The notes under the pieces were generated by a model. That model was not told the origin of the DNA and did not search any database. It saw only the letters and a list, made by a program, of their open reading frames with translations. Shown piece after piece: positions 4,381-22,301 of a DNA stretch of 64,000 bases. The position numbers and the translations under genes were made by a program. This DNA is from Klebsiella phage vB_KaeM_KaOmega. Position 1 is the stretch's first letter; every line of letters begins with the position of its first letter. Location of the stretch: sequence record MN013077.1. One strand, 5' to 3'.

Positions 4381-4426
4381 GGGTCTCGATCGAGAAATCA
4401 ATACTTGAATCGTATTTTTGTTCATG
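4381..4426 (+). repeat. bipartite repeat element GGGTCTCGATCG-N16-AATCGTATTTTT (copy 1 of 4)
   Basis: Exact 12-mer GGGTCTCGATCG at 4381 with ATCGTATT exactly 28 nt downstream. Same architecture as the three copies at 15713-15905. Lies in the divergent intergenic region just upstream of the HD-hydrolase gene. Confidence 0.6.
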
Positions 4427-4464
4427 CTACCTTATTGTTCACTAAACATGAACAGGAGAGCACC

Positions 4465-9449: not shown

Positions 9450-9457
9450 GGAGAATT

Positions 9458-9835: not shown

Positions 9836-10075
9836 CCATGTAGCCCTACGGGACACACGAAGTAATAATAGATCTAACACCTTCGCTACGCTCACCCATC
9901 CGGGCCTACGGGGTGTTGATCTGATCTTATAATAAAACTTCCCCACTCACATTCGTTCGGGGTCAGTTTTATTAAATTTCTTCGAAATTGTCATTGACAA
10001 CAACATTCCCTTCATGTATCTTTGTGTTCAAGGGAGATGACTCCCACACAACAAATAACATGAAGGAGAGACAAT

Positions 10076-10318
10076 ATGAGAGTACGTCAGCATCGTGGTT
10101 CACTGGTGGAAAGCCTGAAGACAGTTAAGCAGATCCCTGCCACCAAAGAAGCGTTGGCAGATCACATCAACATGGTGATGGATTTCCCTGTTAAGTTTGG
10201 ACCTGGCTCCATCAGCCTGATCCATCAGGGTATGGATGATCGAATCGGTTGGGATACTTATCTCATCACGGTTTCAGGTTTGGGTGTGTTTGGTTATTGT
10301 GATGAGGAGGTCAAATGA
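10076..10318 (+). CDS. hypothetical protein
   Basis: 80-aa ORF with GAAGGAGAG SD. Confidence 0.5.
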   Translation: MRVRQHRGSLVESLKTVKQIPATKEALADHINMVMDFPVKFGPGSISLIHQGMDDRIGWDTYLITVSGLGVFGYCDEEVK

Positions 10319-10407
10319 ACGTCCTGTTCGCAGGTATTGTATTGATCCTCGTTGTGGATTTCTTCTATTCAAAATATCGAAGGAATCCATATGGAACTTG
10401 GGGATAA
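10315..10407 (+). CDS. putative 30-aa membrane peptide
   Basis: ATGA overlap with previous stop; MNVLFAGIVLILVVDFFYSKY is hydrophobic. Very short, so low confidence. Confidence 0.25.
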   Translation: MNVLFAGIVLILVVDFFYSKYRRNPYGTWG

Positions 10408-10513
10408 GATCTCAATAGGTCTTGTGCTCCTTGGTGGATCTATGCTACTGTTTGGACTGATCGGAAAGATCATTATGTTCTTCATAACACTCTGTGGAGG
10501 TTTCAGTGGGTAA
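10391..10513 (+). CDS. putative 40-aa membrane peptide
   Basis: AAGGA SD; MELGDKISIGLVLLGGSMLLFGLIGKIIMFFITLCGG forms a single TM. Confidence 0.3.
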   Translation: MELGDKISIGLVLLGGSMLLFGLIGKIIMFFITLCGGFSG

Positions 10514-10627
10514 TATTAAATGGTGGGCACTAATGCCTGCGGCAAATGAGGACGAAGGTGGCGACGGGAAACGTGCGGCTGCACAGCAGTATTTTTGGTG
10601 GCCTTCTAACGTACAACCGGGGGCGTA

Positions 10628-10978
10628 ATGGAAAACATCGTATTTTATTCCCTTTGGGCACTGGCTTCAGTTGTCGGGGTATGGCGTATGATCAACCTGA
10701 TGTCCATGTCCGGTCGCGTGGGTAACGACGATCGTGTGATGGTCCTCTTCATCCTCACGCCAGCCAGTCTCCTGATGACTCCGGTCATACTGGTTGTGGA
10801 ACTTCTGTTCTGGGTAGGGAAGAAGATTGACAACTTCCGGGAATCTCCCCGCTACGTGACTTGGAAGATCCAACGTCAGATTCGTAAACGTCGCCGGGGG
10901 CCTCTGGTTCGTGTTGTTGAGCATCTGTACAATAAGCGTAAGGAGAAGGCACGTGAAAAAGGCGTATCTGAAGTATAA
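10628..10978 (+). CDS. membrane protein with basic C-terminal tail
   Basis: 116 aa with two TM segments then RKRRRGPLVR...KRKEKAREKG. Confidence 0.5.
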   Translation: MENIVFYSLWALASVVGVWRMINLMSMSGRVGNDDRVMVLFILTPASLLMTPVILVVELLFWVGKKIDNFRESPRYVTWKIQRQIRKRRRGPLVRVVEHLYNKRKEKAREKGVSEV

Positions 10979-11111
10979 ATGGCGCTTCTGGGAGCATACT
11001 TTGGTTTTTACTGGGTGGCTCTTCGGATACGGTCATGATGTGTACTACGGTGTGAAGGATAGCCGCAACAAGGCATACTTCGCCTATACTTTCCACAAGG
11101 GGCGAGCATGA
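10953..11111 (+). CDS. hypothetical small protein
   Basis: GTG at 10953 after AAGGAGAAGG SD (track ORF 10911..11111); 52 aa. Confidence 0.35.
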   Translation: MKKAYLKYKWRFWEHTLVFTGWLFGYGHDVYYGVKDSRNKAYFAYTFHKGRA

Positions 11112-11350
11112 ACCTCGGGAAAAACCAAATCGGGGTATTGAAGTGTCTCGGAGATGGGCGTTACGGGTATATCGCTTTTCCTTGGGGCTGCGGGTGGGTG
11201 TGGAACACCCGACAAGGGACGATCAAGATCCTTGAAACTCTGGTCAAAAAGGGCCTGGTTGATAAGGGTACATATACAACCGAAGAGGGTAAGTCTTACC
11301 CTCAATATACCATCTCTCACGCCGGGGAAGTGTACCTCCTCGGAAGATAA
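11108..11350 (+). CDS. hypothetical protein, winged-helix-like
   Basis: 80 aa. GTIKILETLVKKGLV resembles a recognition helix/wing. Likely paralog of the next gene. Confidence 0.45.
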   Translation: MNLGKNQIGVLKCLGDGRYGYIAFPWGCGWVWNTRQGTIKILETLVKKGLVDKGTYTTEEGKSYPQYTISHAGEVYLLGR

Positions 11351-11381
11351 CAGCACAATCCTATTGATAAAGGAACAGATA

Positions 11382-11579
11382 ATGGCTAAACTAACTAAAC
11401 CCCAGCAAAAATTCCTGCTGGCTGCGCTCGGCGGTGACCACAATCGTGACCTGAAGGGAAAGGTCCAAGATAACTTGGCTTCCCAAGGACTGATCCGTTA
11501 TCTTCCGCCGTTTGGCTGGGTTCTCACCGCAGAGGGCGGGGAAATTGCCCGTGAACTGGAGGCCCGTCGTGCAGATTAA
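11382..11579 (+). CDS. hypothetical protein, winged-helix-like (paralog of 11108..11350)
   Basis: ATG at 11382 after AAGGAACAGAT. 65 aa; QQKFLLAALGGD...LASQGLIRYL...GWVLTAEGGEIA parallels the previous protein. Confidence 0.45.
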   Translation: MAKLTKPQQKFLLAALGGDHNRDLKGKVQDNLASQGLIRYLPPFGWVLTAEGGEIARELEARRAD

Positions 11580-12108
11580 GCGTTCCACAATCGAGAAGAT
11601 CCGTATCGAAGACATTCAGGATTCACATCGCCTTGACCCAGTTGAGGTTATTGTGGAGAATTTTGAACCGGGTGCTGGCAAGATTACTATCTCTTGCTAC
11701 GGTCAGGTCTGGACAGGCTTTTGGGGAAGCATGGGCGGCACAGTGGAGGAGTTCTTCCAACGTGTCTCCAATGACTATCTGATCGATAAGATGTCTGACT
11801 ACCGGGCAACAGAGCCGGACCCGGATAAAGACCCAGAGTATCTGAAGTCTTTGATCCTGAAACACCGACGTTCCCGAGACATCACCAAAGACCAGGCGAA
11901 GCAGGCGTGGTACTACGTTGATAGCTACGGGCCGGATCGTAACTCTCTTTGTTACGGCTACGTTCCGGAGGAGTTGCAGGTTATCGAGGGTATGTGTGAA
12001 CCTTGGTACTTTGACTGGCCTCAAATCCCAAGCACTAACTACGCATACCTGGGGCGTATTCTTGATCTCGTTCGTGAAGTTATAAAACCCGGAGGAAACA
12101 ATGAATAA
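11569..12108 (+). CDS. hypothetical protein
   Basis: Track ORF 11512..12108. GTG at 11569 preceded by GGAGG avoids a long overlap with the previous gene. About 179 aa. Confidence 0.5.
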   Translation: MQIKRSTIEKIRIEDIQDSHRLDPVEVIVENFEPGAGKITISCYGQVWTGFWGSMGGTVEEFFQRVSNDYLIDKMSDYRATEPDPDKDPEYLKSLILKHRRSRDITKDQAKQAWYYVDSYGPDRNSLCYGYVPEELQVIEGMCEPWYFDWPQIPSTNYAYLGRILDLVREVIKPGGNNE

Positions 12109-12310
12109 GGTACGCTGTACGTATGTCGAAGAGGATATGGAATGCCACTTCACCGTCGGTAAAGAATATACCTGTAAGGTTGACGAGTCGGCAGCAGATC
12201 CTGACTCAATGATTGTCATTGGCGAGGATAAGGAGACGTGGTACGCCGAACGCTTAGATGACAATAACGTATCTCTGTTGGGCATTTTCGTAAAATTTGA
12301 GTTTATTTAA
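12101..12310 (+). CDS. hypothetical protein
   Basis: 69-aa ORF followed directly by an intrinsic terminator. Confidence 0.45.
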   Translation: MNKVRCTYVEEDMECHFTVGKEYTCKVDESAADPDSMIVIGEDKETWYAERLDDNNVSLLGIFVKFEFI

Positions 12311-12313
12311 TGA

Positions 12314-12345
12314 AAAGGGGTTGACTTCGGTCAGCCCCTTTTGTT
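12314..12345 (+). terminator. rho-independent terminator
   Basis: AAAAGGGGTTGAC-TTCG-GTCAGCCCC stem-loop followed by TTTTGTTATT. Confidence 0.65.
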
Positions 12346-12388
12346 ATTCTTACTTCATCGAAACGAAACAGACAAAAGGAACGACAAA

Positions 12389-12613
12389 ATGAGCATGAAG
12401 AAAAAAGCAAATGACCTGGCGCGTATCGCCAAACAGAAAGGCCACATCGAGGCAGTACGTCGCCTGCAACTGGCTCTTGAACTGGAAATGCGTGACGCTG
12501 GCATCAAAGGTGTTGACGCTGAACTGGCAAAGCTGAACGCGACAATCGGGTTCTACGAGGACTCAATCGGTGGTCAGTACGACAATGCCCTATTCGAACT
12601 GGAGGATATGTAA
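12389..12613 (+). CDS. hypothetical coiled-coil protein
   Basis: ATG at 12389 after AAAGGAACGAC (track ORF begins with TTG at 12341); 74 aa. Confidence 0.45.
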   Translation: MSMKKKANDLARIAKQKGHIEAVRRLQLALELEMRDAGIKGVDAELAKLNATIGFYEDSIGGQYDNALFELEDM

Positions 12614-12801
12614 TGGCTAAGATTGTCCTGTCAGAAGGTGCAAGCTGGGTAGTTGAGCGCCTGCCCAATTCTGTGTACGATAAGGTTAAAAAAGAGATCG
12701 AGGACTTTCTCGAACTGAAGATGTTACAGGTTGGATATGACCAAGGCATTCGTATGTCATTCAACGAAGAAAAACCTGCACGTTTGGAGCGTAAACCATG
12801 A
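12613..12801 (+). CDS. hypothetical protein
   Basis: 62 aa; ATGG/TAATGG junction with previous gene. Confidence 0.4.
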   Translation: MAKIVLSEGASWVVERLPNSVYDKVKKEIEDFLELKMLQVGYDQGIRMSFNEEKPARLERKP

Positions 12802-13160
12802 ACATTAAGACAATCGTCCCGCAGTACATGGTTCGTCAAGGTCTGGGTGACTGTGAGTGCCACATTAACGACTCCTGTGACTGTATGCCGGAGTTGATTC
12901 TGACCAAGAACGGCCTGTCCGGGTTTGGTGTTGGGTACTGGACCTACACCGATGAAACCTGCCCGAAGTCGATTGACTCGTGGGGCAAGGCGTACTGGTG
13001 CGAGTTCCTCGGACTGCCGGGCTTCTGGGCAATGGGTGAAGATGACGCAGCAGAAACTTTGCTCAAACAGCTTGACCTGATGGGTCAGTGTGCTACAATC
13101 AATTTCAGAAACACGAAGGCGGCATCCGCCGCTATCAATGAACTGGAGAAAAATAAATGA
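12798..13160 (+). CDS. hypothetical Cys-rich protein
   Basis: 120 aa; ATGA overlap; 8 Cys including CECHINDSCDC. Confidence 0.5.
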   Translation: MNIKTIVPQYMVRQGLGDCECHINDSCDCMPELILTKNGLSGFGVGYWTYTDETCPKSIDSWGKAYWCEFLGLPGFWAMGEDDAAETLLKQLDLMGQCATINFRNTKAASAAINELEKNK

Positions 13161-13501
13161 ACCACATCTTCGATAACATCAAGAACTTAGAGGCCCTGGC
13201 AGATCTTTGCCAGAAAGATATTCGCCAATACCAAGCTATGCGTACTGGCGGTGCCGAGCGATGGGAGATGGATGCATTCATTCCCCAAATGGATGACAAC
13301 AACTACGCATTCACCGAAGCCGTGCGTAAGCTGAACCTGGACAACCAAGACGAGATGATTAAATTCATCAAGGCCATCAAGGCGCTCGGCGCGGTTGAGA
13401 CACTGGAGCGTATGCAGGAGAGCGAGGAGTTTTCCACATTCGTAAACATCCGCCTTGAAGGCTGGGTAAACCGTATCACTTCGGAGGTTACTGATGACTA
13501 A
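13157..13501 (+). CDS. hypothetical acidic protein
   Basis: 114 aa; ATGA overlap. Confidence 0.5.
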   Translation: MNHIFDNIKNLEALADLCQKDIRQYQAMRTGGAERWEMDAFIPQMDDNNYAFTEAVRKLNLDNQDEMIKFIKAIKALGAVETLERMQESEEFSTFVNIRLEGWVNRITSEVTDD

Positions 13502-13721
13502 GTTGATCCCGCAGAAAGAAGCTGCTAAACTTATCAACCGGGCCTATGAGTTGACCAAGGCACACCCTCAGTTACGTGTGGGCCAGAACCTCTGGAACTA
13601 CGTCAACGAGGACTACCCGGACGTGGCAGCACTGTTTCATGGTGGGGAGCATGATTTCTTCTACCAACCGAATGCGGCAGTATCCGTGGAAACATTCCTT
13701 ATCTATTATGTGGAGAAATAA
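13494..13721 (+). CDS. hypothetical protein
   Basis: 75 aa; overlapping start with previous gene. Confidence 0.45.
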   Translation: MTKLIPQKEAAKLINRAYELTKAHPQLRVGQNLWNYVNEDYPDVAALFHGGEHDFFYQPNAAVSVETFLIYYVEK

Positions 13722-13722
13722 T

Positions 13723-13995
13723 ATGAAAGACCTGAAAATCACACGCACCATCAGCACCGGGGTTATGTTCTTCGTCCCTCATGATGAAGACCGTTATGAC
13801 GAAATTGAAACCACGATCCTGAATGAGTTCATCGACCTCGATTGTGGATCTGTCGCGCTCCATGCTGACGATGCCGAGTTCTGCCAGTATTACCTGACTG
13901 CCGACATCGAGGATGAAGAAGAGTTCCACAAAGTGTGCCAGTGGCTTCTGAAGCGCATGGAAGAACTGGGGACCACACTGGATTTCGTATCATGA
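13723..13995 (+). CDS. hypothetical protein
   Basis: ATG at 13723 (MKDLKITRT...) immediately after previous stop; track ORF 13576 is an over-extended frame. Confidence 0.45.
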   Translation: MKDLKITRTISTGVMFFVPHDEDRYDEIETTILNEFIDLDCGSVALHADDAEFCQYYLTADIEDEEEFHKVCQWLLKRMEELGTTLDFVS

Positions 13996-14219
13996 CAAAG
14001 TACGTTTTCTTGTCCAACATCATGTACAACAGCATGGCTATCCGCCGGGTTCGTTGGTGGCATAAGCTGTTCGGTCATGCAGGGGAAGTTGTCCTTGATT
14101 ACGTATATGTAAATCAGGTTGACAATGAGGACGGGTTCCGCAAGGCGGTTATCTACTTCCGTAATCGGGGCCTGGAGGCCCAGGTTATGGGTATGAAAAT
14201 GCACAAGGGTATCGTATGA
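13992..14219 (+). CDS. hypothetical protein
   Basis: ATG 13992 (MTKYVFLSN...); ATGA overlap. Confidence 0.45.
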   Translation: MTKYVFLSNIMYNSMAIRRVRWWHKLFGHAGEVVLDYVYVNQVDNEDGFRKAVIYFRNRGLEAQVMGMKMHKGIV

Positions 14220-14488
14220 TCTGCTACGACAAATATGGTAAGATGACACCCGAGTTTCAGGCTTACCAACAAGAGGCTTGGGACAAGCTGCGGGCCATTG
14301 CCGGACAACTGACGAAGCAAGCTATTGCCAGTGGCGTTTGTCCCAATGCGATGCGGGATACAATGACCAAGGCCATCGAGTGCGGGTGTGTTGTTGCCAG
14401 TGCGGAGGTCTTCGTTGAAGATAACAAGAAGGATGTGCCCAAGAAAGGCTCTCCTGACTGGCACATGGGGTTCGTGAACGGACTTTGA
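14216..14488 (+). CDS. hypothetical protein
   Basis: 90 aa; ATGA overlap. Confidence 0.45.
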   Translation: MICYDKYGKMTPEFQAYQQEAWDKLRAIAGQLTKQAIASGVCPNAMRDTMTKAIECGCVVASAEVFVEDNKKDVPKKGSPDWHMGFVNGL

Positions 14489-14546
14489 TAAATCATACCG
14501 GGAGAGGCTTGCGCCTCTCCTGATGCGTTACAGGAGCAAATAGAGC

Positions 14547-15407
14547 ATGTCCTCATTTGATGCGGTTTTCTTACACGGTGTTGCTGACTATTCCAAGGGC
14601 ACCAGCCCAACACCCGAGATCCCGGACTGGAAAAATTTACAGCGCCGCCTAGCCGATGTGGAAAAGACTGCCAAGACTGAATGGCAGAACAACGATGCAA
14701 TAGCGTCAGACATTAGCGACATTGCCAGTGACTTTGATTTCGACTCTTCCCTTGAGGATTTCGTAATCAGGGCAAATGATAAGATAGACCATCTGCACCA
14801 AGGTATCCGCGATGCCAGCTATGATCTCAATACCAACTGGGACCCAGATGGGATGACACGTGATCAGATGGTGACTTTTGTCGAGAACCTTAAAGATCAC
14901 CTCCAAGAATACCTTCCAAACTCCCAGAAAATGAGGGAGGTTGCTATCGGTTGGTACGGCTACGAGGTGGCCCGATTTGTTCAGGAGTATCATCCACTGG
15001 GCCAAGCATGGCTCTGCTACACACATGACGACACATATATGGGTGATTTGCACGACTCCAAGCTGGGTGACCTTGCTATCAAGGCTTGTGCCAATGGAAT
15101 CCTGAGATTCACAACCCAATGGGTTCCTGGTTACCTGCACTTTACCAGTGACAATAGGATTGTCATGGGTGACAGGGAAGGTCAGGGCGGTCTCGTGATG
15201 AAGGTGGATGAGTTCAGGACATACTTCGAAGACTGGAGGCGACCAACAGAAGAGGAGATTGGCCTGTTTGATGTTCTCCACCCGGGGGCAAACTGGTCGG
15301 TATTCCGATACCTGCGTGACTACGAAGGGAAGAACTATATATCGAACAAAAAGATCATTACCACCATCCCAACAAACAGTTTGATTTCTGTGAGCACAGC
15401 CCTGTGA
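14547..15407 (+). CDS. hypothetical protein
   Basis: 286-aa ORF; last gene before the 15.4-16.3 kb noncoding repeat region. Confidence 0.55.
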   Translation: MSSFDAVFLHGVADYSKGTSPTPEIPDWKNLQRRLADVEKTAKTEWQNNDAIASDISDIASDFDFDSSLEDFVIRANDKIDHLHQGIRDASYDLNTNWDPDGMTRDQMVTFVENLKDHLQEYLPNSQKMREVAIGWYGYEVARFVQEYHPLGQAWLCYTHDDTYMGDLHDSKLGDLAIKACANGILRFTTQWVPGYLHFTSDNRIVMGDREGQGGLVMKVDEFRTYFEDWRRPTEEEIGLFDVLHPGANWSVFRYLRDYEGKNYISNKKIITTIPTNSLISVSTAL

Positions 15408-15712
15408 TATTTGTGAGCCAAGGACGGCTCAGATTTCAGATCGGTTTTCGATTTGATATTTGTACCTGATATTTGTGTAGATATTTGAAATCAGATTTCA
15501 ACTCGAAATTCAATTTGAGATTTTATTTGGTATGGCCCGGCGGGCCGGAACCCAGATCTGATTTCTTTTTCAGATTTACTGACCAATGTACCAAACTGAC
15601 TGACCTTTGGTCAATACCTATTGCATCATAAATGTTACATTAAGGGGCTTATGACTCGTTAATGACACATAAACGTTACATAGTGAGAGTTATCCTCTGT
15701 CAGAAAATTTGA

Positions 15713-15758
15713 GGGTCTCGATCGACTTTTCATTTTGCCGATCGTATTTTCTGTACAG
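15713..15758 (+). repeat. bipartite repeat element GGGTCTCGATCG-N16-GATCGTATTTTC (copy 2)
   Basis: Exact 12-mer at 15713; ATCGTATT starts 28 nt downstream (15741). Confidence 0.6.
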
Positions 15759-15770
15759 CCCGGCTGTCCG

Positions 15771-15782
15771 GGGTCTCGATAG
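15771..15782 (+). repeat. degenerate half-copy GGGTCTCGATAG
   Basis: 11/12 match to the 12-mer; no downstream ATCGTATT partner. Confidence 0.4.
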
Positions 15783-15790
15783 AAAAATCG

Positions 15791-15836
15791 GGGTCTCGAT
15801 CGGTTTTTCGATTTCCAGATCGTATTCTCGATACAG
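15791..15836 (+). repeat. bipartite repeat element (copy 3)
   Basis: GGGTCTCGATCG at 15791; ATCGTATT at 15819 (offset 28). Confidence 0.6.
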
Positions 15837-15853
15837 GTACAGGTCTCACGCCG

Positions 15854-15905
15854 GGGTCTCGATCGAAAGTTCAAAACCCAAAACGTATTCTCAAAATCTA
15901 TACAG
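15854..15905 (+). repeat. bipartite repeat element (copy 4, second half AACGTATTCTC)
   Basis: GGGTCTCGATCG at 15854; AACGTATT at 15882 (offset 28). Confidence 0.55.
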
Positions 15906-15957
15906 AGGTGAAAATCGAAATGCAAATCGTTATCATTATCACGTCGCCCGGGTCGGA

Positions 15958-15974
15958 ATGAGAATCGTTCTCAT
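15958..15974. promoter_or_regulatory. operator-like palindrome ATGAGAA-TCG-TTCTCAT
   Basis: 7-bp perfect inverted arms with 3-nt centre. A sister site lies 58 bp downstream. Confidence 0.5.
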
Positions 15975-16015
15975 TTGCAAATGTAACTGATAATCATTCG
16001 CATTTAGGTTGTTGA

Positions 16016-16032
16016 ATGAGAATCATTCTCAT
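16016..16032. promoter_or_regulatory. operator-like perfect palindrome ATGAGAAT-C-ATTCTCAT
   Basis: 8+1+8 perfect palindrome. The half-site ATTCTCAT recurs 4 times at 29158-29241. Confidence 0.55.
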
Positions 16033-16308
16033 CTCCAGAATAGCGGGCAGGTCCGGTGATTGTCTCCGGGTCAATTCTCCCCGCTATGTGTATAATATAA
16101 CCCAGGCCCGGCCCGGTGGCAAGCGTCTTTACAGTTCTTTACAAAACTATTTTAGGCGAACTACCGGCGATCCACCTTCCGACCTGGCCCCGGTGCCCGG
16201 TACGTTAGCCCCGCCTTTTCGCCGTGGGGTGGCGTCTCCTCTCCTGTATGTGTACATTATGCACCAGGCCAGCCGGGCCGTCAATACCAAAATCAAAATA
16301 AATTTTTC

Positions 16309-16337
16309 TTGACCCACCAGGCCAGCCGGGCCACAAT
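16309..16337 (+). promoter_or_regulatory. sigma70-like promoter TTGACC-N17-CACAAT with GC-rich spacer (GGCCAGCCGGGCC)
   Basis: Precedes SD AAAAGGAGA and ATG 16368; the spacer motif CACCAGGCCAGCCGGGCC also occurs at 16262. Confidence 0.45.
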
Positions 16338-16367
16338 GCAGGCACACCAACAAAAGGAGATCGACCC

Positions 16368-16700
16368 ATGCAACAGACGAAATATTTTATTGAAGGAACA
16401 GCCGCCGCCCACGCCGGGCAGATCCGCGCCTGCCGCTACAATAAAGAAGAGAACCGCCGGGAATGGTTCGCCGGGTTCGATAGTGTGGATCGTGGCTATG
16501 CCGTGTTTAAGATCCTCCCTGGTCCCGGCGCTGTTAAGCTGGCTGACCTGGACCCCGTTTATATTGGTGGCGTTAAACAATGCCAAGATCGCGCCGTTAC
16601 CCTGCAACAGGCAGACCGCGCCGGGCGCTATGTCATTTATGATATGGCAACGGGCAAGCCGTACCAGGAAAGCACAAAATTAAATTACAAAAATATTTAA
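16368..16700 (+). CDS. cassette ORF, hypothetical protein
   Basis: 110 aa; strong SD; first ORF of the plus-strand array. Confidence 0.55.
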   Translation: MQQTKYFIEGTAAAHAGQIRACRYNKEENRREWFAGFDSVDRGYAVFKILPGPGAVKLADLDPVYIGGVKQCQDRAVTLQQADRAGRYVIYDMATGKPYQESTKLNYKNI

Positions 16701-16708
16701 AATAATGC

Positions 16709-16737
16709 TTGACGGGGCCGACGATAGGCCCCATAAT
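16709..16737 (+). promoter_or_regulatory. hairpin-spacer sigma70 promoter (TTGACG-GGGGCC gacgat GGCCCC-ATAAT)
   Basis: -35 TTGACG and -10 CATAAT 17 nt apart; spacer folds as a 6-bp GC hairpin. Archetype of about 20 copies. Confidence 0.65.
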
Positions 16738-16789
16738 TAACCACATAGCGACGCACACCGCGCCGCACTAACAAAGAGAGACCGTCATC

Positions 16790-17227
16790 ATGTTACATTC
16801 AATCAATAAAGAGCAAAAACTGTACGTCCTGAAGTGTGGCAACGGCTTTACCTGCTATGGGTTCGAAGTGCTGGACACAAACGCCCGCAAGGTTAAACAG
16901 TGGTTAGAATCTGAAGGTGCAACAGTCGAGGATCTCCCATATCGCAAGGGCACAAAGAAGCATTATAAAGCCTGTCAAGATATGATCGCCGCTGGTTGTG
17001 CTTATCATGCCAGAACGGGCAAACGCTGCCTTGCTGGACTCACCAAACAATTAAAGGGCCTGGAGGGTCGCCGGGTAGAGGTTGTCACCATGTACGGCGA
17101 AAAACGCCGCTTTATTGTGGGCCGTTCTACTGGCTGGATGCCTGCCCACTTAGAGATCGCCCGCGTCAACAGTAGCGGCGGCATGAGTGCAGAGCAGGAA
17201 TATAAATCTGTAACTATCGTAAAATAA
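16790..17227 (+). CDS. cassette ORF, hypothetical protein
   Basis: 145 aa; conserved TIR AAAGAGAGACCGTCATCATG. Confidence 0.55.
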   Translation: MLHSINKEQKLYVLKCGNGFTCYGFEVLDTNARKVKQWLESEGATVEDLPYRKGTKKHYKACQDMIAAGCAYHARTGKRCLAGLTKQLKGLEGRRVEVVTMYGEKRRFIVGRSTGWMPAHLEIARVNSSGGMSAEQEYKSVTIVK

Positions 17228-17230
17228 ACG

Positions 17231-17259
17231 TTGACACCGGGGCCACCTAGCCCCATAAT
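17231..17259 (+). promoter_or_regulatory. hairpin-spacer sigma70 promoter
   Basis: TTGACA-CCGGGGCC acctag CCCC-ATAAT. Confidence 0.6.
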
Positions 17260-17309
17260 ACAAACAAGCCCGGCAAATGGTGCCCGGCAAAATCAGAGAG
17301 TAAAAGAAA

Positions 17310-17531
17310 ATGGCTAAAGTAACCTATAAAAAATCACGTGGCGTTTCCTCTGTTAACCTGGCGGCGGTTGTAACCCTGCCCGCATACCGTACCCGTGACG
17401 AGGCGCGCGCCGTTGCCAGTAAGATCCGCGCCGCTGGCGTGACCCCGACAACGCCAACCAAAACGGCGGACGGCTGGCGAGTTACCGCAAAGCATAACGG
17501 CGGCACACTTTCCCGCAACACTCACCGCTAA
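17310..17531 (+). CDS. cassette ORF, hypothetical protein
   Basis: 73 aa; Ala/Thr-rich. Confidence 0.5.
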   Translation: MAKVTYKKSRGVSSVNLAAVVTLPAYRTRDEARAVASKIRAAGVTPTTPTKTADGWRVTAKHNGGTLSRNTHR

Positions 17532-17540
17532 CCAATTGCA

Positions 17541-17560
17541 GGCCCCCGGCGGGGGCCTTT
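17541..17560 (+). terminator. GC hairpin terminator (weak U-tract)
   Basis: GGCCCCC-GGC-GGGGGCC followed by TTTC. Confidence 0.45.
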
Positions 17561-17577
17561 CGTGTGGAGTCAGTAAC

Positions 17578-17922
17578 ATGACCAAACAGATCTACCATGT
17601 ACCGATCACGCCGCTTTTCCGTTGTCATATCTTTTATGACTGTAATGATCTTGCGGGGCAATGGATCGGCGATACCGATCAACAATATGATTTCCCGGAA
17701 TGGGACGAACTAAACCGCCGTGTAAGCAACGCCGCACACAATGCCGATCCTGATAGCCTGGCGGACGTGGAACACTTCCCCGGCGGGGCCGCTTGTTTTC
17801 CTTATATTGAGATCACCGCGCCAACGTGGGCGCTATGTAAAGCGATGGGCGACGCCGTGATCCGTTGCATCCTGGACAATGGCGGGATCGTCGAACCAAA
17901 AGACAACGGAATAAATATTTAA
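17578..17922 (+). CDS. cassette ORF, hypothetical protein
   Basis: ATG 17578 after GGAG (track ORF starts with TTG at 17536); 114 aa. Confidence 0.5.
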   Translation: MTKQIYHVPITPLFRCHIFYDCNDLAGQWIGDTDQQYDFPEWDELNRRVSNAAHNADPDSLADVEHFPGGAACFPYIEITAPTWALCKAMGDAVIRCILDNGGIVEPKDNGINI

Positions 17923-17941
17923 ATTATTTTCGTTTTAGGGG

Positions 17942-17970
17942 TTGACGCCCGGCGGCGTTACCCTCATAAT
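17942..17970 (+). promoter_or_regulatory. hairpin-spacer sigma70 promoter
   Basis: TTGACG-CCCGGCGGCG ttaccct-CATAAT. Confidence 0.55.
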
Positions 17971-18022
17971 GTATCACATAGGGCGACGGAATAACCCGCC
18001 GCCAAAACCAAAAGGTAACAGT

Positions 18023-18262
18023 ATGCAAACCGTAATGATTAGCCACCCGGATCACGCTTCAGACTTCTACGCCCCGATTTACGCGCCGCTTGAATGGCAA
18101 CGCGCCGGACTGCAAAAAACCGCCACGGGCTACGGCACAAAGATCCCGACGTCCTACATGTTGGACTATCAAGGCAAGCGCCGCCGGATCTACGTTGACC
18201 AGTACAGCAACAGCGGCCACACTTACATAATGATCAAAGGCGAAAAAATTACGGTCTGCTAA
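18023..18262 (+). CDS. cassette ORF, hypothetical protein
   Basis: ATG 18023 after AAAAGGTAACAGT (track ORF 17942 runs through the promoter); 79 aa. Confidence 0.5.
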   Translation: MQTVMISHPDHASDFYAPIYAPLEWQRAGLQKTATGYGTKIPTSYMLDYQGKRRRIYVDQYSNSGHTYIMIKGEKITVC

Positions 18263-18271
18263 AAATAATTG

Positions 18272-18301
18272 TTGACCAGGGGCCGGGTTAGGCCCCATAA
18301 T
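18272..18301 (+). promoter_or_regulatory. hairpin-spacer sigma70 promoter
   Basis: TTGACC-AGGGGCC gggtta GGCCCC-ATAAT. Confidence 0.6.
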
Positions 18302-18333
18302 ACCAGACATACCAAACAAACGAGGCTTTAAAA

Positions 18334-18564
18334 ATGAATCTGACTACTATCGGCGCTAACCAAACTATGATCACCCTGGCAAATGGCGCACAGGTTTTCT
18401 TTTCCTACAATACCCCGGTTGCGGCATACCTGCCCGGCGAGGGCTACTTGGTGACCGCCACAAAGCACAGCGCCACCACCTCAAAGCATGTTAACGCTTG
18501 GGCTGGCAAAGGTTGCGAGACCCGCCCACAGGAATTTTTTGATAATCTGATTAAATCCGCTTGA
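18334..18564 (+). CDS. cassette ORF, hypothetical protein
   Basis: 76 aa. Confidence 0.5.
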   Translation: MNLTTIGANQTMITLANGAQVFFSYNTPVAAYLPGEGYLVTATKHSATTSKHVNAWAGKGCETRPQEFFDNLIKSA

Positions 18565-18590
18565 CGTTGGTTTATGCTGGGGTATATAAT
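18561..18590 (+). promoter_or_regulatory. sigma70 promoter TTGACG-N18-TATAAT
   Basis: TTGACGTTGGTTTATGCTGGGGTATATAAT. Confidence 0.55.
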
Positions 18591-18642
18591 CCCCGGCATA
18601 GGCAAGCGAAAGCAAACAACCAAACCGAAAGGATAGTAAACG

Positions 18643-19023
18643 ATGAACATTATCAACACTGTAAACGCTAACGAAATCAAAGAAATTTCCGTAACTGGTA
18701 AACGTTGGTTCCAACGTAGCGCCGGGAACACTTACCACAGTGTAAGCCTGGCGGCGCTGGTATCCGTAGAAGTGGCGGACCGTTTAGGCGCTAACCAATA
18801 CGGAAACAAGTCCGGCGACGTGTGGATCGACCTGGCTTATGTTGGTTTCGCTTATGGGTATGAGCGCGGATTTGAACAAACCGCATTAAGTGCAATGATC
18901 GAGGCGGTGAAGGATTCCCCGGCGGCGTGGCGTAAAATGGTTTACGCTTGCCAGGCGGCGGCGGATCTGGGGGTTGTTTACACTGATAACGTTTACGACG
19001 TAAGCCGCAAAAAAGATTTATAA
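18643..19023 (+). CDS. cassette ORF, hypothetical protein
   Basis: 126 aa; SD AAAGGATAG. Confidence 0.55.
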   Translation: MNIINTVNANEIKEISVTGKRWFQRSAGNTYHSVSLAALVSVEVADRLGANQYGNKSGDVWIDLAYVGFAYGYERGFEQTALSAMIEAVKDSPAAWRKMVYACQAAADLGVVYTDNVYDVSRKKDL

Positions 19024-19029
19024 TTGTGG

Positions 19030-19059
19030 TTGACACGGGGCCGGGTTAGGCCCCATAAT
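19030..19059 (+). promoter_or_regulatory. hairpin-spacer sigma70 promoter
   Basis: TTGACA-CGGGGCC gggtta GGCCCC-ATAAT. Confidence 0.6.
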
Positions 19060-19091
19060 ACCCGCACACCAACAGAAAAGAGATTCACACC

Positions 19092-19301
19092 ATGATCAAC
19101 GAACAGCAAGTAAACGACGTTAAACATGAGGCTTACCAGGTGGCGATCCGTAGCGGTTCCCGCGCCGCCTTTAATCTGGTTGTTGAGTTGTACCCAGAGC
19201 AGGCGCAAAATATCTTGATGCAGGTATCCGTTTTACTGGAGGCGACAAAGCACACCAAATTAAGCGCCGGGATCGACCGCCTCGCAAATAGTTTAAAATA
19301 G
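19092..19301 (+). CDS. cassette ORF, hypothetical protein
   Basis: 69 aa. Confidence 0.5.
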   Translation: MINEQQVNDVKHEAYQVAIRSGSRAAFNLVVELYPEQAQNILMQVSVLLEATKHTKLSAGIDRLANSLK

Positions 19302-19304
19302 TTG

Positions 19305-19333
19305 TTGACATCGGGGCCACCCGGCCCCATAAT
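19305..19333 (+). promoter_or_regulatory. hairpin-spacer sigma70 promoter
   Basis: TTGACA-TCGGGGCC accc GGCCCC-ATAAT. Confidence 0.6.
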
Positions 19334-19383
19334 CTGATACATAGCGACGCACAACGCGCCGCACAAAATAGAGAGACCGTAAA

Positions 19384-19749
19384 ATGACTACTTCCACCAA
19401 AAACACCGCCGCTACTGCCGCCGTTCGCGCTTACGTTGTATCTGTTATCGACTTTGAAGGCACCGACGCCGAAAAGCTGAAATTTTTCTTTGATACCCTG
19501 CAATCTGAATACGGGCACGAGGTTAGCCGCTTGGGTCCACAACGCGCCATCACGGAATATCTTCGCGGCCTGCCGTCGTCAATCAATCATGCTTTTATGA
19601 ATCATGAGATCCTTGATCTTTTGTCTGAATGGGGTTACATTCATTTCCACACCACAGCAGCCCAGGAAGAATGGGAGTTAGATCAGTATTGGACACGTTT
19701 GGCGGGTTCTCTGATTATTCAGGCACGTAAGCACGGGGTGATTGAATGA
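19384..19749 (+). CDS. cassette ORF, hypothetical protein
   Basis: 121 aa; TIR AGAGAGACCGTAAAATG. Confidence 0.55.
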   Translation: MTTSTKNTAATAAVRAYVVSVIDFEGTDAEKLKFFFDTLQSEYGHEVSRLGPQRAITEYLRGLPSSINHAFMNHEILDLLSEWGYIHFHTTAAQEEWELDQYWTRLAGSLIIQARKHGVIE

Positions 19750-20060
19750 TTACAGTTCTAACCTTGATCGGGTTAGCGGCGGCGGCGCTGTACTGCGTCG
19801 CCACTTACAAGGCGTCAGTTTGGCGGAAGGGTCAAAAAATGTACGGCTATTTTGAATATGAGTACAAAGGGGAGAAGGGATCAAGCCGGGACTATGGCGC
19901 GATGTTAGAGATCGATATGGTTGGCGCTATGAATTATCGCCAGGAGTTAGGCGCGGCGATCACTTATGAAGTTTATGATCCCTCAGAAGAGAAGATCGGG
20001 GAGATAATTGATCAACGTTACTATATGGAACAGCAACAAAACAAACGCCGGAGAAAATGA
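19746..20060 (+). CDS. hypothetical protein with N-terminal TM helix
   Basis: 104 aa; ATGA overlap; MITVLTLIGLAAAALYCVATY is hydrophobic. Confidence 0.5.
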   Translation: MITVLTLIGLAAAALYCVATYKASVWRKGQKMYGYFEYEYKGEKGSSRDYGAMLEIDMVGAMNYRQELGAAITYEVYDPSEEKIGEIIDQRYYMEQQQNKRRRK

Positions 20061-20197
20061 GAATGATTCACACTAATATTAACCGCGATAAACAACCGCG
20101 CCGCGCCCGTCTCTCATATGCTGAAGCAGGCGAGCGCCTGCAACGTGAGAAGGCCAACAAACAACAGCGCCGTAAAACGCGCTATAACTGGGAGTAA
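20057..20197 (+). CDS. putative 46-aa basic peptide
   Basis: ATGA overlap; Arg/Lys-rich (QPRRARLSYAEAGERLQREKANKQQRRKTRYNWE); precedes a terminator. Confidence 0.3.
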   Translation: MRMIHTNINRDKQPRRARLSYAEAGERLQREKANKQQRRKTRYNWE

Positions 20198-20243
20198 CCG
20201 CCCCCGGCATGGAAACACCAGGCCAAACCGTTTAAACCGCACA

Positions 20244-20269
20244 GGGGGCCGCTTAGGCCCCTTATTTTT
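20244..20269 (+). terminator. rho-independent terminator
   Basis: GGGGCC-gctta-GGCCCC followed by TTATTTTTG. Confidence 0.65.
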
Positions 20270-20286
20270 GATCTACGGGGTACACA

Positions 20287-20514
20287 ATGCAAAACCTTTA
20301 CAGCATGACCGAATTTATCCGATTGTTAGCAGGTCGCCCGATGGGGTTTACCTGCCTTTACCTGGTAACCGACGGCAAAGGCTATCGTATAACGTCCAAA
20401 TCATTAGCCGCCATTGCAGCGCGGGAAGGGGTGAAGATCTCCACCTCCCAGGCGCTGATTGTGGACCCGGCGACCGTGGCGACGATTGAGGCGATCCGGG
20501 TTACCGTAAAATAA
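20287..20514 (+). CDS. hypothetical protein
   Basis: 75 aa; no cassette promoter directly upstream. Confidence 0.4.
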   Translation: MQNLYSMTEFIRLLAGRPMGFTCLYLVTDGKGYRITSKSLAAIAAREGVKISTSQALIVDPATVATIEAIRVTVK

Positions 20515-20538
20515 TTTAAAATATTTTCATCCTGGGGC

Positions 20539-20567
20539 TTGACGTCCGGCCCCGGTTCCCCCATAAT
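20539..20567 (+). promoter_or_regulatory. hairpin-spacer sigma70 promoter
   Basis: TTGACG-TCCGGCCCCGGTTCCCC-CATAAT. Confidence 0.55.
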
Positions 20568-20617
20568 CTAACCCATAGCGACGCACACCGCGCCGCACAA
20601 ACAAAAGAGAGACCGTT

Positions 20618-21034
20618 ATGACTTCCCCAATTTTCCGTATCAAATCAGGCTTATCGGCTTACGCATTATCTTGCGGTTACTTCCAGCGTATCGAGTCAGA
20701 GATCACCGGGGAAGATATCCGGGTTGACCTTTGGCATGAGTCGGGCCACTTCCACGCCCGCGCCCACAATTTTACAACCTCCACTCGGATCGAATGGGTA
20801 ACAGAAAGTAACCTTGACGACGCCCGCACACAATGGGCCGCGCTTGTCAAACAAATTTTTGGCGACGTGATCCGCACCATTAAAAAGGATAAGCGCTACA
20901 CCGTAAACCGTGAGTTTGCCGGAGAGTCATCACCCGCTTATGTGACCCGCTTTTGTGGCGAATGGGTATCAAACAGCGATACCGCGCCCGGCGCATGGGT
21001 AAAAGCCGCCGAACACAACGCCGAAAGAATTTAA
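20618..21034 (+). CDS. cassette ORF, hypothetical protein
   Basis: 138 aa; TIR AAAAGAGAGACCGTTATG. Confidence 0.55.
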   Translation: MTSPIFRIKSGLSAYALSCGYFQRIESEITGEDIRVDLWHESGHFHARAHNFTTSTRIEWVTESNLDDARTQWAALVKQIFGDVIRTIKKDKRYTVNREFAGESSPAYVTRFCGEWVSNSDTAPGAWVKAAEHNAERI

Positions 21035-21043
21035 AAATAATTG

Positions 21044-21072
21044 TTGACGGGGCCGACGATAGGCCCCATAAT
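21044..21072 (+). promoter_or_regulatory. hairpin-spacer sigma70 promoter (identical core to 16709)
   Basis: TTGACG-GGGCC gacgat AGGCCCC-ATAAT. Confidence 0.65.
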
Positions 21073-21103
21073 ACCCACAGATAAGCAAACCGGAGTTAGA
21101 CCA

Positions 21104-21256
21104 ATGAAACATTATCTTGTAAACATTCCTGGCGTGGCTGGCCCGCTTAAAGTTTTCGGCTATGATGAACAGGACGCAAGAAAGCGCCTACGTGATCGGG
21201 AAGGTTTCGGATCACGCCTCCCACGGGGCACAAAATTTTATTTGCAAAACGCTTGA
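21104..21256 (+). CDS. cassette ORF, 50-aa hypothetical protein
   Basis: ATG 21104 (MKHYLVNIPG...) after GGAG; track ORF 21041 starts inside the promoter. Confidence 0.45.
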   Translation: MKHYLVNIPGVAGPLKVFGYDEQDARKRLRDREGFGSRLPRGTKFYLQNA

Positions 21257-21282
21257 CGTGTGGTTATGCCGTCCCTTACAAT
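21253..21282 (+). promoter_or_regulatory. sigma70 promoter TTGACG-N18-TACAAT with hairpin GCCGTC..GACGGC
   Basis: TTGACGTGTGGTTATGCCGTCCCTTACAATGACGGCAT. Confidence 0.5.
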
Positions 21283-21334
21283 GACGGCATAGACAAACGA
21301 AAGCAAACCAGACAACCAAACGAGGGTTACAATT

Positions 21335-21586
21335 ATGTTTGAAGTATTCGCCGGAATGTGTTTTTATGCTGCCGCCGCTTTAAAACAGTGTGATGATTAC
21401 ACCGTTGAAGCATACGATGATCAATTAACGTGTGAGATCGTCGCCAATGGCTACCGTCAGGACCCGCGCTGGATTAACCCGGCTTGCATACCGGGGCCGG
21501 AAGTGGAAGCAATGCCGGAGGGTGATCCGTGGCTTGAACCTGTACCGCCTGCCGATCATTTCAATGTTAACCCGGCACAAAAATAA
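21335..21586 (+). CDS. cassette ORF, hypothetical protein
   Basis: 83 aa. Confidence 0.5.
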   Translation: MFEVFAGMCFYAAAALKQCDDYTVEAYDDQLTCEIVANGYRQDPRWINPACIPGPEVEAMPEGDPWLEPVPPADHFNVNPAQK

Positions 21587-21589
21587 TTG

Positions 21590-21617
21590 TTGACGTGTGG
21601 TTATAGGTCTGTATAAT
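21590..21617 (+). promoter_or_regulatory. sigma70 promoter TTGACG-N16-TATAAT
   Basis: TTGACGTGTGGTTATAGGTCTGTATAAT. Confidence 0.55.
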
Positions 21618-21660
21618 GCGGACCTATAGACAAACGAAACGCCACCAAACGAGGCACAAA

Positions 21661-22020
21661 ATGAAATCATACGCTGAAGCTATCGCCACCCGTCCCGATC
21701 TCCTGGTAAAGGGTGATCTATTCCTTACGCTGGAGACTTTCGATTTTTCCCGTGATATCAACGGCAATACGATCAACAAATATCGCGCCGCGCTTGTCTC
21801 AGGCGACGAACAAAGCGTTTTAAACTGGTACGCCGCCGCCAATGAGCTGGAGATCCTCAAATCACCTTATCGCCGTGAACAGTCCCATAATGACGGCGCA
21901 AGCGCCGCCCTTTATCGCTTGGGCTTGCTGGGGTACGAACTGGAATACATTACCACACAATACGGCCCCGGCAAGCGCCGCGCCTATCGAATTTTCTACC
22001 GTGTAAAGAATGCAAAATAA
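21661..22020 (+). CDS. cassette ORF, hypothetical protein
   Basis: ATG 21661 after AACGAGGCACAAA (track ORF 21616 over-extended); 119 aa. Confidence 0.5.
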   Translation: MKSYAEAIATRPDLLVKGDLFLTLETFDFSRDINGNTINKYRAALVSGDEQSVLNWYAAANELEILKSPYRREQSHNDGASAALYRLGLLGYELEYITTQYGPGKRRAYRIFYRVKNAK

Positions 22021-22023
22021 GTA

Positions 22024-22052
22024 TTGACCAGGGGCCGGAAAGGCCCCATAAT
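22024..22052 (+). promoter_or_regulatory. hairpin-spacer sigma70 promoter
   Basis: TTGACC-AGGGGCC ggaa AGGCCCC-ATAAT. Confidence 0.6.
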
Positions 22053-22088
22053 ACCAGACATACCCAAACAGGCATAAGAGGCCACAAA

Positions 22089-22268: not shown

Positions 22269-22271
22269 TTG

Positions 22272-22301
22272 TTGACGCCGGGCACCGTCCCGGCTTACAA
22301 T
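22272..22301 (+). promoter_or_regulatory. hairpin-spacer sigma70 promoter (TACAAT -10)
   Basis: TTGACG-CCGGGCACCGTCCCGGCT-TACAAT. Confidence 0.55.

Follow-up and report, generated by a model that had tools for sequence, protein, structure and literature searches.

A one-directional signal of 38 bp, consisting of GGGTCTCGATCG, a short TTC box, and ATCGTATTYT at fixed spacing, occurs at four places in the 64,000-nt stretch of Klebsiella phage vB_KaeM_KaOmega DNA analyzed here (record MN013077.1; hereafter the window). Its sequence and distribution mark it as a real, deeply conserved, and previously undescribed cis-element. As a kind of element, promoter-like or iteron-like, it is familiar; its sequence, tripartite form, and setting are new. 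Three copies (modules) stand in tandem in a non-coding hub of ~1 kb (15408–16367), and the fourth lies at the junction between a leftward gene block, whose first ATG is at 4341, and the SAH operon, which runs rightward from its ATG at 4465. Tentatively, and with rather less than even confidence, we favor a role in which each full module would be an activator- or factor-dependent promoter.

A search of the window confirmed the copies noticed in a first-pass annotation: the exact 12-mer GGGTCTCGATCG (box 1) begins at 4381, 15713, 15791, and 15854, always on the plus strand, where ~0.008 exact copies would be expected in 64 kb on both strands, and a one-mismatch copy, GGGTCTCGATAG, begins at 15771. 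ATCGTATT or AACGTATT (box 2) begins exactly 28 nt after each full copy (4409, 15741, 15819, 15882). The box at this offset reads (A/T)A(T/A)CGTATT, with CGTATT 30 nt after the start of every full copy. We aligned 36 non-identical copies from 11 phages or contigs, which gave the consensus G0 G1 K2 W3 C4 T5 C6 G7 A8 T9 C10 G11 A12 n w T T T17 C18 R19, continuing as A28 W29 C30 G31 T32 A33 T34 T35 Y36 T37. The 16 nt between the boxes had been taken as unconserved and the element as bipartite. In the alignment, however, a T-run is followed by an invariant T17, by C18 in 33 of the 36 copies, and by R19 in 35, forming a T17-C18-R19 mini-box. Because T17 and A28 were invariant without being imposed by the collecting pattern, the element is tripartite. 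No insertion or deletion was found between the boxes in these copies, which come from Certrevirus, Mydovirus, Seunavirus, Vequintavirus, and IMG/VR contigs.

A weight matrix built from the same copies and spanning offsets 0–38 scored the four sites at 47–56 bits. The partial copy at 15771 scored 23.8 bits. Beyond these, the best score was 4.6 bits both for the window and for Enterobacter phage vB_ExiM_F1M1E (F1M1E), whose complete genome has 149.8 kb, and shuffled genomes peaked at ≤12 bits. F1M1E contains exactly four sites at the same two loci as the window. The count is thus exactly four per genome, divided between two loci, and no family of weaker sites lies beneath them. A genome-wide class of transcription signals, as first suggested, does not fit these numbers, and a broad class of middle promoters was likewise rejected on the lack of weaker sites. 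The first-pass annotation had also counted an absence of further copies in the genome against the element; F1M1E has none, which is not a valid refutation given the in-register conservation in four genera.

By sequence, the source phage of the window is a Certrevirus of the subfamily Vequintavirinae (rV5-like). A 3-kb segment around the motif was 92.8% identical to F1M1E, the closest relative, 83–86% identical to Cronobacter phages CR3, CR8, and PBES02, and ~80% identical to Pectobacterium phage phiTE. All closest matches are Certreviruses, and an initial suggestion of T5-type DNA was not borne out. The window corresponds to ~64.5–128.5 kb of the F1M1E genome. Position 4381 is the divergence point between the leftward block, which has the DNA polymerase gene further along it, and the rightward block, within which 15713 falls.

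The triple tandem module was found in the same orientation and register, directly upstream of a palindrome array, across four genera. These are Certrevirus (F1M1E, CR3, CR9, POP15, phiTE, and IMG/VR contigs L079, L150, and L155), Mydovirus (Mydo and BIS47-, Ro1-, and KB57-like contigs), Seunavirus (PVP-SE1, L069, and L153), and Vequintavirus (nomo, with a decayed third copy); an unclassified 146-kb contig (L045) also has it. Offsets 2–3 vary (GT, TT, TA). In box 2, Certrevirus and Seunavirus copies carry TATTYT, rV5-like copies GATTTT, and all Mydovirus copies G at offset 37 (TATTTG or TAATTG). Box 2 of the rV5-like phage nomo reads GGATTTTCT, having lost CGT and kept A33-T34-T35 and T37; such loss of CGT with retention of ATTTT weakened a further candidate, a −10 of the extracytoplasmic function (ECF) sigma type with a CGT core. 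In modules 1 and 2 of phiTE, box 1 is intact (12/12) where box 2 has decayed, which argues that box 1 has a function of its own; on this sequence evidence we regard box 1 as an autonomous protein site. The box-1-only partial sites before modules 2 and 3 (15771 and 15841) are also kept in relatives, the latter as AGGTCTC(G/C) in Certrevirus relatives and L045.

We searched 596 Gb of bacterial DNA from 185,579 species genomes with the strict motif and obtained seven scattered single matches, none in Enterobacterales, which is about the chance number by our own estimate. An initial scan of IMG/VR with 14 specified bases was swamped by chance matches, and a stricter pattern was used instead. The relaxed motif in 2.9 million IMG/VR contigs gave 17 DNA stretches on 16 contigs, most of ~140–153 kb; two were chance-like, and the remainder had tandem or junction-type copies. 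Because bacterial matches are at chance level and IMG/VR matches are mostly modules, the element is specific to this phage group and not taken from a host regulon, and a host transcription-factor regulon or decoy was rejected. Of such signals, the Certrevirus literature records the sigma70-like cassette promoter alone; the motif is not mentioned in the paper on it (PMC7344957), no mention was found in the phiTE, rV5, and P7_Pc papers, and the 12-mer was not found in a phage context in the literature searched. A region of the hub's kind is drawn merely as 'non-coding' in the rV5 genome paper (PMC3606486), and four of five annotated relatives (CR3, CR9, POP15, phiTE) leave the repeat region unannotated.

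Table 1. Coordinates of the modules, partial copies, and neighboring signals in the window
Feature	Position	Strand	Details
Junction module	4381..4418	+	box 1 GGGTCTCGATCG 4381–4392; TCA mini-box 4398–4400; box 2 ATCGTATTTT 4409–4418; −10-like TATTTT 4413–4418; 47.0 bits
Leftward sigma70 promoter P_L	4401->4373	-	TTGATT-17-TATATT
Alternative rightward promoter	4405..4433	+	TTGAAT-17-TACCTT; overlaps box 2; below the 9/12 scan threshold
Tandem module 1	15713..15750	+	box 1 15713–15724; TCA mini-box 15730–15732; box 2 ATCGTATTTT 15741–15750; −10-like TATTTT 15745–15750; 54.1 bits
Box-1-only partial copy	15771..15782	+	GGGTCTCGATAG; 20 nt upstream of module 2; relatives read GGGTCTCGGTAC; 23.8 bits
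Tandem module 2	15791..15828	+	box 1 15791–15802; TCG mini-box 15808–15810; box 2 ATCGTATTCT 15819–15828; 55.9 bits
Box-1-like half site	15841..15848	+	AGGTCTCA; 13 nt upstream of module 3
Tandem module 3	15854..15891	+	box 1 15854–15865; TCA mini-box 15871–15873; box 2 AACGTATTCT 15882–15891; 49.5 bits
Four Fur-box-like palindromes	15918..16037		TGAGAATCrTTCTCA, TGATAATCATTCGCA; directly downstream of module 3
Leftward sigma70 promoter	16122->16094	-	TTGCCA-17-TATATT
Second leftward sigma70 promoter	16284->16256	-	TTGACG-17-CATAAT

In box 2, the hexamer at offsets 32–37 resembles a −10 element. T32 was kept in 36/36 copies, A33 in 35/36, T34 in 34/36, T35 in 35/36, and T37 in 31/36, a profile that fits a −10 element at T−12, A−11, and T−7 and is one reason why we favor a promoter. 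Seventeen bp before TATTYT, offsets 9–14 read TCGAnn, and the two together match the sigma70 consensus at 8/12 positions, just below the scan threshold. TCGAnn itself matches at 2–4 of 6 positions; no −35 resembling TTGACA was present, and the consensus scan called no module in the window or in PVP-SE1. None of the four sites matched TTGAC-N19-ATAAT with ≤1 mismatch. Together with the fixed spacing, the multiple boxes, and the single orientation, this agrees with the earlier proposal of a protein-binding or promoter-like element apart from the sigma70 cassette promoters.

In the mechanism that we propose, box 2 would provide the −10-like hexamer, and box 1 (GGKWCTCGATCG) would stand in for the −35 region as the docking site of a sequence-specific, probably phage-encoded protein; counted from a start near offset 44, it spans about −44 to −33. 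The docked protein would recruit or re-target host RNA polymerase in the style of a class II activator. The three tandem modules would fire rightward into the palindromes and a conserved element beyond them, opposing two leftward sigma70 promoters. Occupancy of the Certrevirus-specific junction copy, which stands back-to-back with P_L and inside the P_L spacer, would switch transcription from the leftward block to the rightward SAH operon.

Several further features led us to favor such promoters. The internal geometry is rigid, yet the spacing between units is free: the three tandem units are 54-nt repeats that follow one another at 78 and 63 nt, out of helical phase, as expected of independent promoter units. 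Every copy is co-oriented with downstream genes, and box 1 sits at the class II activator position and is independently selected. Canonical promoters replace the modules at both loci, namely in the FBKp34 hub and at the Mydo junction, and the 11-kb SAH operon has nearly no other promoter. In FBKp34, a Klebsiella phage of the Stephanstirmvirinae, three rightward consensus sigma70 promoters (TTGACT-17-TATAGT, TTGACA-17-CATAAT, and TGGACA-17-CATAAT) stand at the place of the three modules, and both conserved leftward promoters of the hub are also there.

The FBKp34 promoters, like the 8/12 match and its correct spacer, could also be read as showing that the modules are weak constitutive sigma70 promoters for unmodified host polymerase, box 1 being merely an unusual upstream or −35 sequence and the tandem arrangement raising output as in T7 A1-A2-A3. 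The T7 promoters A1, A2, and A3 are likewise three co-oriented promoters, bordering the early region and packed into ~200 bp, but they have strong consensus sequences and drive early genes, whereas the modules are non-consensus, have extra boxes, and are aimed at palindromes and opposing promoters. Plain sigma70 promoters would not need or conserve GGKWCTCGATCG, T17-C18, and A28 across four genera, nor retain box 1 after the loss of box 2 as in phiTE. Because the early promoters of the phage itself are close to consensus, weak ones would lose out to them, and Mydovirus copies have G at −7. We consider this explanation improbable.

Activator-dependent promoters of other phages are closer in design. 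T4 middle promoters (a MotA box plus −10, used by sigma appropriation), the lambda cII promoters pRE, pI, and paQ, and the Mu promoters dependent on Mor or C have, as the modules do, a −10 of good or fair quality, a −35 that is poor or missing, and a conserved asymmetric box set a constant distance from the −10, over the −35 position or just before it. With 3–4 sites per genome, the regulons of lambda cII and Mu C are as small as the set of four modules. The boxes themselves differ: GGKWCTCGATCG lies at about −44 to −33, as against the T4 MotA box TGCTT at −30, the lambda TTGC-N6-TTGC, and the Mu dyad sites. The T4 MotA box, (a/t)(a/t)(a/t)TGCTTtA, is centered at −30, 11–13 bp upstream of −10, and occurs in many copies before middle genes. 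The modules contain no MotA box: positions −30 to −26 read TTTTCR, and GGKWCTCGATCG lies 20 bp upstream of the −10-like hexamer. Unlike in T4, lambda, and Mu, three of the four modules stand in tandem before non-coding DNA, and the window open reading frames (ORFs) scanned, at low sensitivity, yielded no MotA, AsiA, cII, Mor, or C homolog. Within the same genomes, the Certrevirus sigma70-like early promoter, AAAA(N3)TGTTGAC(N19)TATAAT (Buttimer et al. 2020, PMC7344957), is likewise a repeated bipartite signal upstream of plus-strand genes, but it differs from the module in sequence and in its many copies.

A number of observations weigh against factor-dependent promoters. G37 of Mydovirus breaks the nearly invariant T−7 of sigma70 −10 elements, and the modules have no proper −35. 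The tandem modules have no ORF to express: 460–650 nt separate them from the next ORF (16368), and that gene is served by a sigma70 cassette promoter of its own at 16309. Of the four copies, which had been noted at first sight to sit upstream of plus-strand genes, the one at 4381 alone immediately precedes a gene, with the SAH start codon at 4465. Box 2 of the junction copy lies in the spacer of the positional ortholog of a Mydo rightward promoter, where an operator fits equally well. At the equivalent place, alia (Stephanstirmvirinae) carries three tandem repeats of ~90 bp, which have different boxes and do not match sigma70 promoters, and in the T5-like phage Spc35 there are 8–9 iteron-like 14-mers (GTCGGATTTGCACA) upstream of very similar palindromes. 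With promoters in FBKp34 and iteron-like repeats in T5-like phages, the analogies point both ways. A literature search found no transcriptome, 5'-end, or start-site map for Vequintavirinae. Pfam and PHROG searches of the window ORFs scanned detected no sigma-, MotA-, or AsiA-like or other DNA-binding protein, at poor sensitivity: even the HD domain of SAH escaped the Pfam scan, which was run on concatenated ORFs.

PDB searches of two window ORFs likewise returned no sigma-like protein or DNA-binding domain. The Cys-rich 175-aa product of the first leftward gene (3615–4142, minus strand), whose promoter carries box 1, was considered as the binding protein, and this candidate was unsupported. 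Its sequence matched nothing in Pfam or the PDB, and the first 50 kb of Mydo contain no homolog.

The junction copy is present at the equivalent place in F1M1E, CR3, CR9, POP15, phiTE, and IMG/VR contigs L152 and L156; it is confined to Certreviruses and missing from the Mydo junction. Box 1 of this copy forms the 17-bp spacer of P_L, and the P_L −35 is the reverse complement of the AATCAA that holds the mini-box. P_L is kept as TTGATT-17-TATAGT in CR3, CR9, POP15, and phiTE; its Mydo ortholog is TTGATT-17-TATCTT, with no box 1 in the spacer. The alternative rightward promoter of Table 1 is the positional ortholog of the Mydo rightward consensus promoter TTGACA-17-GATAAT (L137 19513–19541), which starts three bases from the leftward −35, exactly where Certreviruses carry TTGAAT. 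The consensus scan found no plus-strand sigma70 promoter of ≥9/12 in the junction region, and the rightward block 4465–15407 (11 kb) contains one weak intragenic one-mismatch match to the cassette pattern (11633), so the junction module is the best candidate promoter for this block. By its position, the junction copy could itself act as the rightward promoter (TCGAGA-17-TATTTT), starting transcription at ~4425, or could be an operator over both divergent promoters. An inverted repeat (TGTTCATG ... CATGAACA) lies in the SAH leader at 4419–4454; it is kept in CR3, POP15, and phiTE but not in CR9, and the predicted start of the junction module falls within its left arm.

An operator at the junction is also part of the main rival explanation, in which the modules would be iterons or operators, sites for a phage-encoded DNA-binding protein and not promoters. 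The three direct repeats would nucleate a nucleoprotein complex, at an origin activated by the flanking leftward transcription or at a control region, and the fourth copy of Certreviruses would be an operator over the −35 regions of both divergent promoters, a layout of an origin cluster plus one site at a promoter as in iteron replicons. The iterons of pSC101, P1, R6K, and lambda ori are likewise direct repeats in repeat-rich non-coding DNA with A+T tracts and GATC, with an extra promoter-overlapping copy and a low copy number per genome. In the hub, the three modules share one orientation, and they are accompanied by other repeat families (GATATTTG ×4 and GATTTC/GAAATC) and by 65–72% A+T tracts at 15440–15520. 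In modules 1 and 2, GATC sites are separated by 20 bp, and Dam methylation of the phage DNA is reported (PMC7344957). Each lineage has its own tandem repeats at this spot, including the non-promoter repeats of alia and the GTCGGATTTGCACA repeats of Spc35 near DnaA boxes. Four sites per genome, one of them overlapping promoters, the conserved partial copies, and box 1 persisting without box 2 in phiTE would all suit iterons, and G37 of Mydovirus would pose no problem.

On the other side, a 38-bp asymmetric tripartite site is longer and less regular than known iterons (17–22 bp), and the 78- and 63-nt spacing is irregular and off helical phase. No initiator or adjacent Rep-like gene was identified nearby: the flanking genes 14547–15407 and 16368–16700 matched only PHROGs of unknown function and nothing in Pfam, and the former also had no PDB match. 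The junction is a local minimum of cumulative GC skew, as an origin might be, but in rV5-type phages GC skew tracks transcription direction (PMC3606486) and is uninformative; locating an origin by skew was rejected because the skew follows gene orientation. Iterons would leave the −10-like conservation pattern and the three consensus promoters of FBKp34 unexplained. We regard this explanation as somewhat unlikely.

Transcription of the hub from either direction would also allow the modules to act in RNA, as processing or antitermination sites or as a repeat RNA. Promoters on both strands are able to read through the modules, CGATCG of box 1 pairs with GATCG of box 2 in modules 1 and 2, and one terminator-like fold was predicted at 15769–15798. 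The pairing is missing, however, from module 3 and the junction copy (AACG, AATCG), and a conserved hairpin or terminator formed by boxes 1 and 2 was rejected for lack of conservation. The terminator-like fold stems from a direct repeat with G-T pairs, and its U-run is not kept in CR3. No rightward transcript with a plausible start would include the junction copy, and no Rfam family matched: a search of 14000–18000 with Rfam 15 gave two sub-threshold chance matches only, neither over the modules. A function at the RNA level is very improbable.

The first-pass annotation had named a transcription signal, initiator iterons, and a T5-type nicking or packaging signal as candidates. The first two remain the leading explanations, and the third, a site-specific nick, pac, or terminase signal of T5 or P1 type, fared poorly. 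The modules are repeated and contain GATC, which recalls the Dam-controlled P1 pac hexamers, and the adjoining palindromes resemble part of the T5 terminal-repeat non-coding region. The genomes of the Certreviruses CB7 and phiTE, however, are circularly permuted without defined ends, show no BAL-31-sensitive fragment and an even read depth, and are probably packaged by the headful (PMC7344957). The modules lie ~80 kb from terL in F1M1E, one copy falls within a promoter region, and the window is not from a T5-like phage, which together make such a signal extremely improbable. Genome termini at the hub were rejected separately: some related records begin there, but phi1_175008 is a circular record. 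In tuntematon and alia, what is annotated as 'repeat_region' represents local repeats.

Two more readings of the repeats were rejected. One was the pseudo-ToxI antitoxin repeat of phiTE. The other was protein-coding repeats, since F1M1E annotates small ORFs there; several frames are open at once, and phiTE has at least two stops in every frame. Three 'hypothetical proteins' of F1M1E (UNA02749–UNA02751) are annotated over the hub at 80086–80876 (L002 4023–4813; about window 15520–16312) and are probably spurious.

From left to right, the hub consists of the GATATTTG and GATTTC/GAAATC repeats (15405–15580), two CATAAAYGTTACAT boxes, the three modules, the four palindromes, a hairpin, a leftward promoter, an element of ~150 nt, the second leftward promoter, and the cassette promoter at 16309. 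The four copies of (T/A)GATATTTG and the inverted GATTTC/GAAATC follow directly after the stop codon of the upstream gene, and GATATTTG repeats occur at the equivalent place in Mydo, PVP-SE1, L045, FBKp34, and Schickermooser. Both leftward promoters are conserved in every lineage examined; they flank the ~150-nt element and face the three modules, which makes the hub a convergent-transcription arrangement. In the alignment, CAAGC is invariant; read on the opposite strand, it gives the TTG of one leftward −35 element. In PVP-SE1 and Mydo, a third leftward promoter lies immediately to the right of module 3.

The three modules point at the palindrome array in every lineage examined. The palindromes match the E. 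coli Fur consensus GATAATGATAATCATTATC at 13–15 of 19 positions, and the DNA from the palindromes to the second leftward promoter is 70–96% identical in 408 phage records (Vequintavirinae and Stephanstirmvirinae). Within these records, conservation of the array extends to the T5-like non-coding terminal-repeat region: 15957–16032 is 75–83% identical to the left-terminal-repeat region of T5-like phages (Spc35, S131, NBSal005), the figure being ~75–77% for the majority of the T5-like records listed and 83% for Erwinia phage KEY. The corresponding T5 DNA is the non-coding 'Repeat Region 3', a proposed injection-stop region (Davison, bioRxiv 10.1101/866236). Its layout is the same, with lineage-specific direct repeats directly upstream of AATGAGAATCATTCTCATT-type palindromes, but the T5 direct repeats are 14-mers (GTCGGATTTGCACA) unrelated to the module and lie in a terminal repeat with DnaA and LexA boxes. 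In Spc35, the palindromes are followed by DnaA boxes and a LexA box in the non-coding part of the left terminal repeat; at L138 1470–1590, paired DnaA boxes (TTATCCACAGACTTATCAACAG; TTATTAACAGACTTATCCACAG) and a perfect LexA-type box (TACTGTATAAATATACAGTA) adjoin Fur-like palindromes, so sites of several host global regulators cluster in one non-coding stretch. Further Fur-like palindromes of the TGAGAATCATTCTCA and TGATAATCATTCGCA types occur in the window at 20053–20071, 26703–26721, 28700–28718, and 29145–29293, the best being GATAATGATAATCATTCCC at 29293 (minus strand; 17/19 matches to the E. coli consensus). Fur-like sites of ≥13/19 number 44 in the window and 10.6 in shuffles. No link between Fur boxes and T5 was found in the literature.

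The ~150-nt non-coding element (16100–16250) is the most conserved DNA of the region. Its loop lengths vary between lineages, so it does not code for protein. Its plus-strand consensus fold has an 11-bp stem with three G-U pairs (CGUUAGCCCCGC...GUGGGGUGGCG); none of its pairs was scored as compensatory, and no Rfam match was found. The element may act as a structured RNA or, alternatively, as a signal in single-stranded DNA. A direct repeat, TCTTTACA ×2, lies within it beside the −35 of the leftward promoter. Directly to its right, a small minus-strand gene is present in phiTE (phiTE_079, L008 13885–14316), tuntematon, alia, and FBKp34 (unannotated), with further coordinates L133 2838–3104, L134 2851–3063, and L011 ~2850–3140, and is absent from the window, CR3, and POP15. 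Its N-terminus, MxTNTxxLMxxLxWQGGTVHQVAxxTGLTVSEILDL, suggests a helix-turn-helix protein.

Beyond the hub, the cassette promoters comprise 15 plus-strand matches to TTGAC-N19-(C/G)ATAAT (≤1 mismatch) at 16309–27460. Their spacers are G+C-rich hairpins, and the set matches the sigma70-like early promoter published for Certrevirus. In several cases, for example at 16737–16790, a repeated leader (GCGACGCACACCGCGCCGC ... AGAGAGACCGT) comes between promoter and start codon.

The modules might represent a new promoter class that host RNA polymerase reads solely in concert with a DNA-binding or sigma-remodelling factor encoded by Vequintavirinae, and might perhaps form one arm of a convergent switch made up of the three modules, the Fur-like palindromes, and the two leftward promoters; we consider this fuller scheme distinctly unlikely. 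In rV5-, PVP-SE1-, Mydo-, and CR3-like phages, this arrangement could control the passage from early to middle expression or set off a transcription-activated origin. By analogy, the palindrome core common to this hub and the T5 terminal-repeat region may be a common control module, possibly iron-responsive via Fur, across unrelated virulent enterobacterial phages.

Members of the Vequintavirinae, among them rV5, PVP-SE1, CR3, and the Klebsiella Mydoviruses, are commonly isolated and serve as candidates for biocontrol or therapy. MotA-, AsiA-, and gp55-like proteins were not detected in the window ORFs scanned, and none are reported for rV5. A 38-bp signal that is in register in four genera, absent from hosts, and limited to four sites offers a bait for its cognate factor and a defined target for mapping, as well as a site to avoid or exploit in engineering these phages. 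If the modules are an iteron array, the origin would be located; if they are factor-dependent promoters, they would show how phages without a polymerase of their own re-target that of the host.

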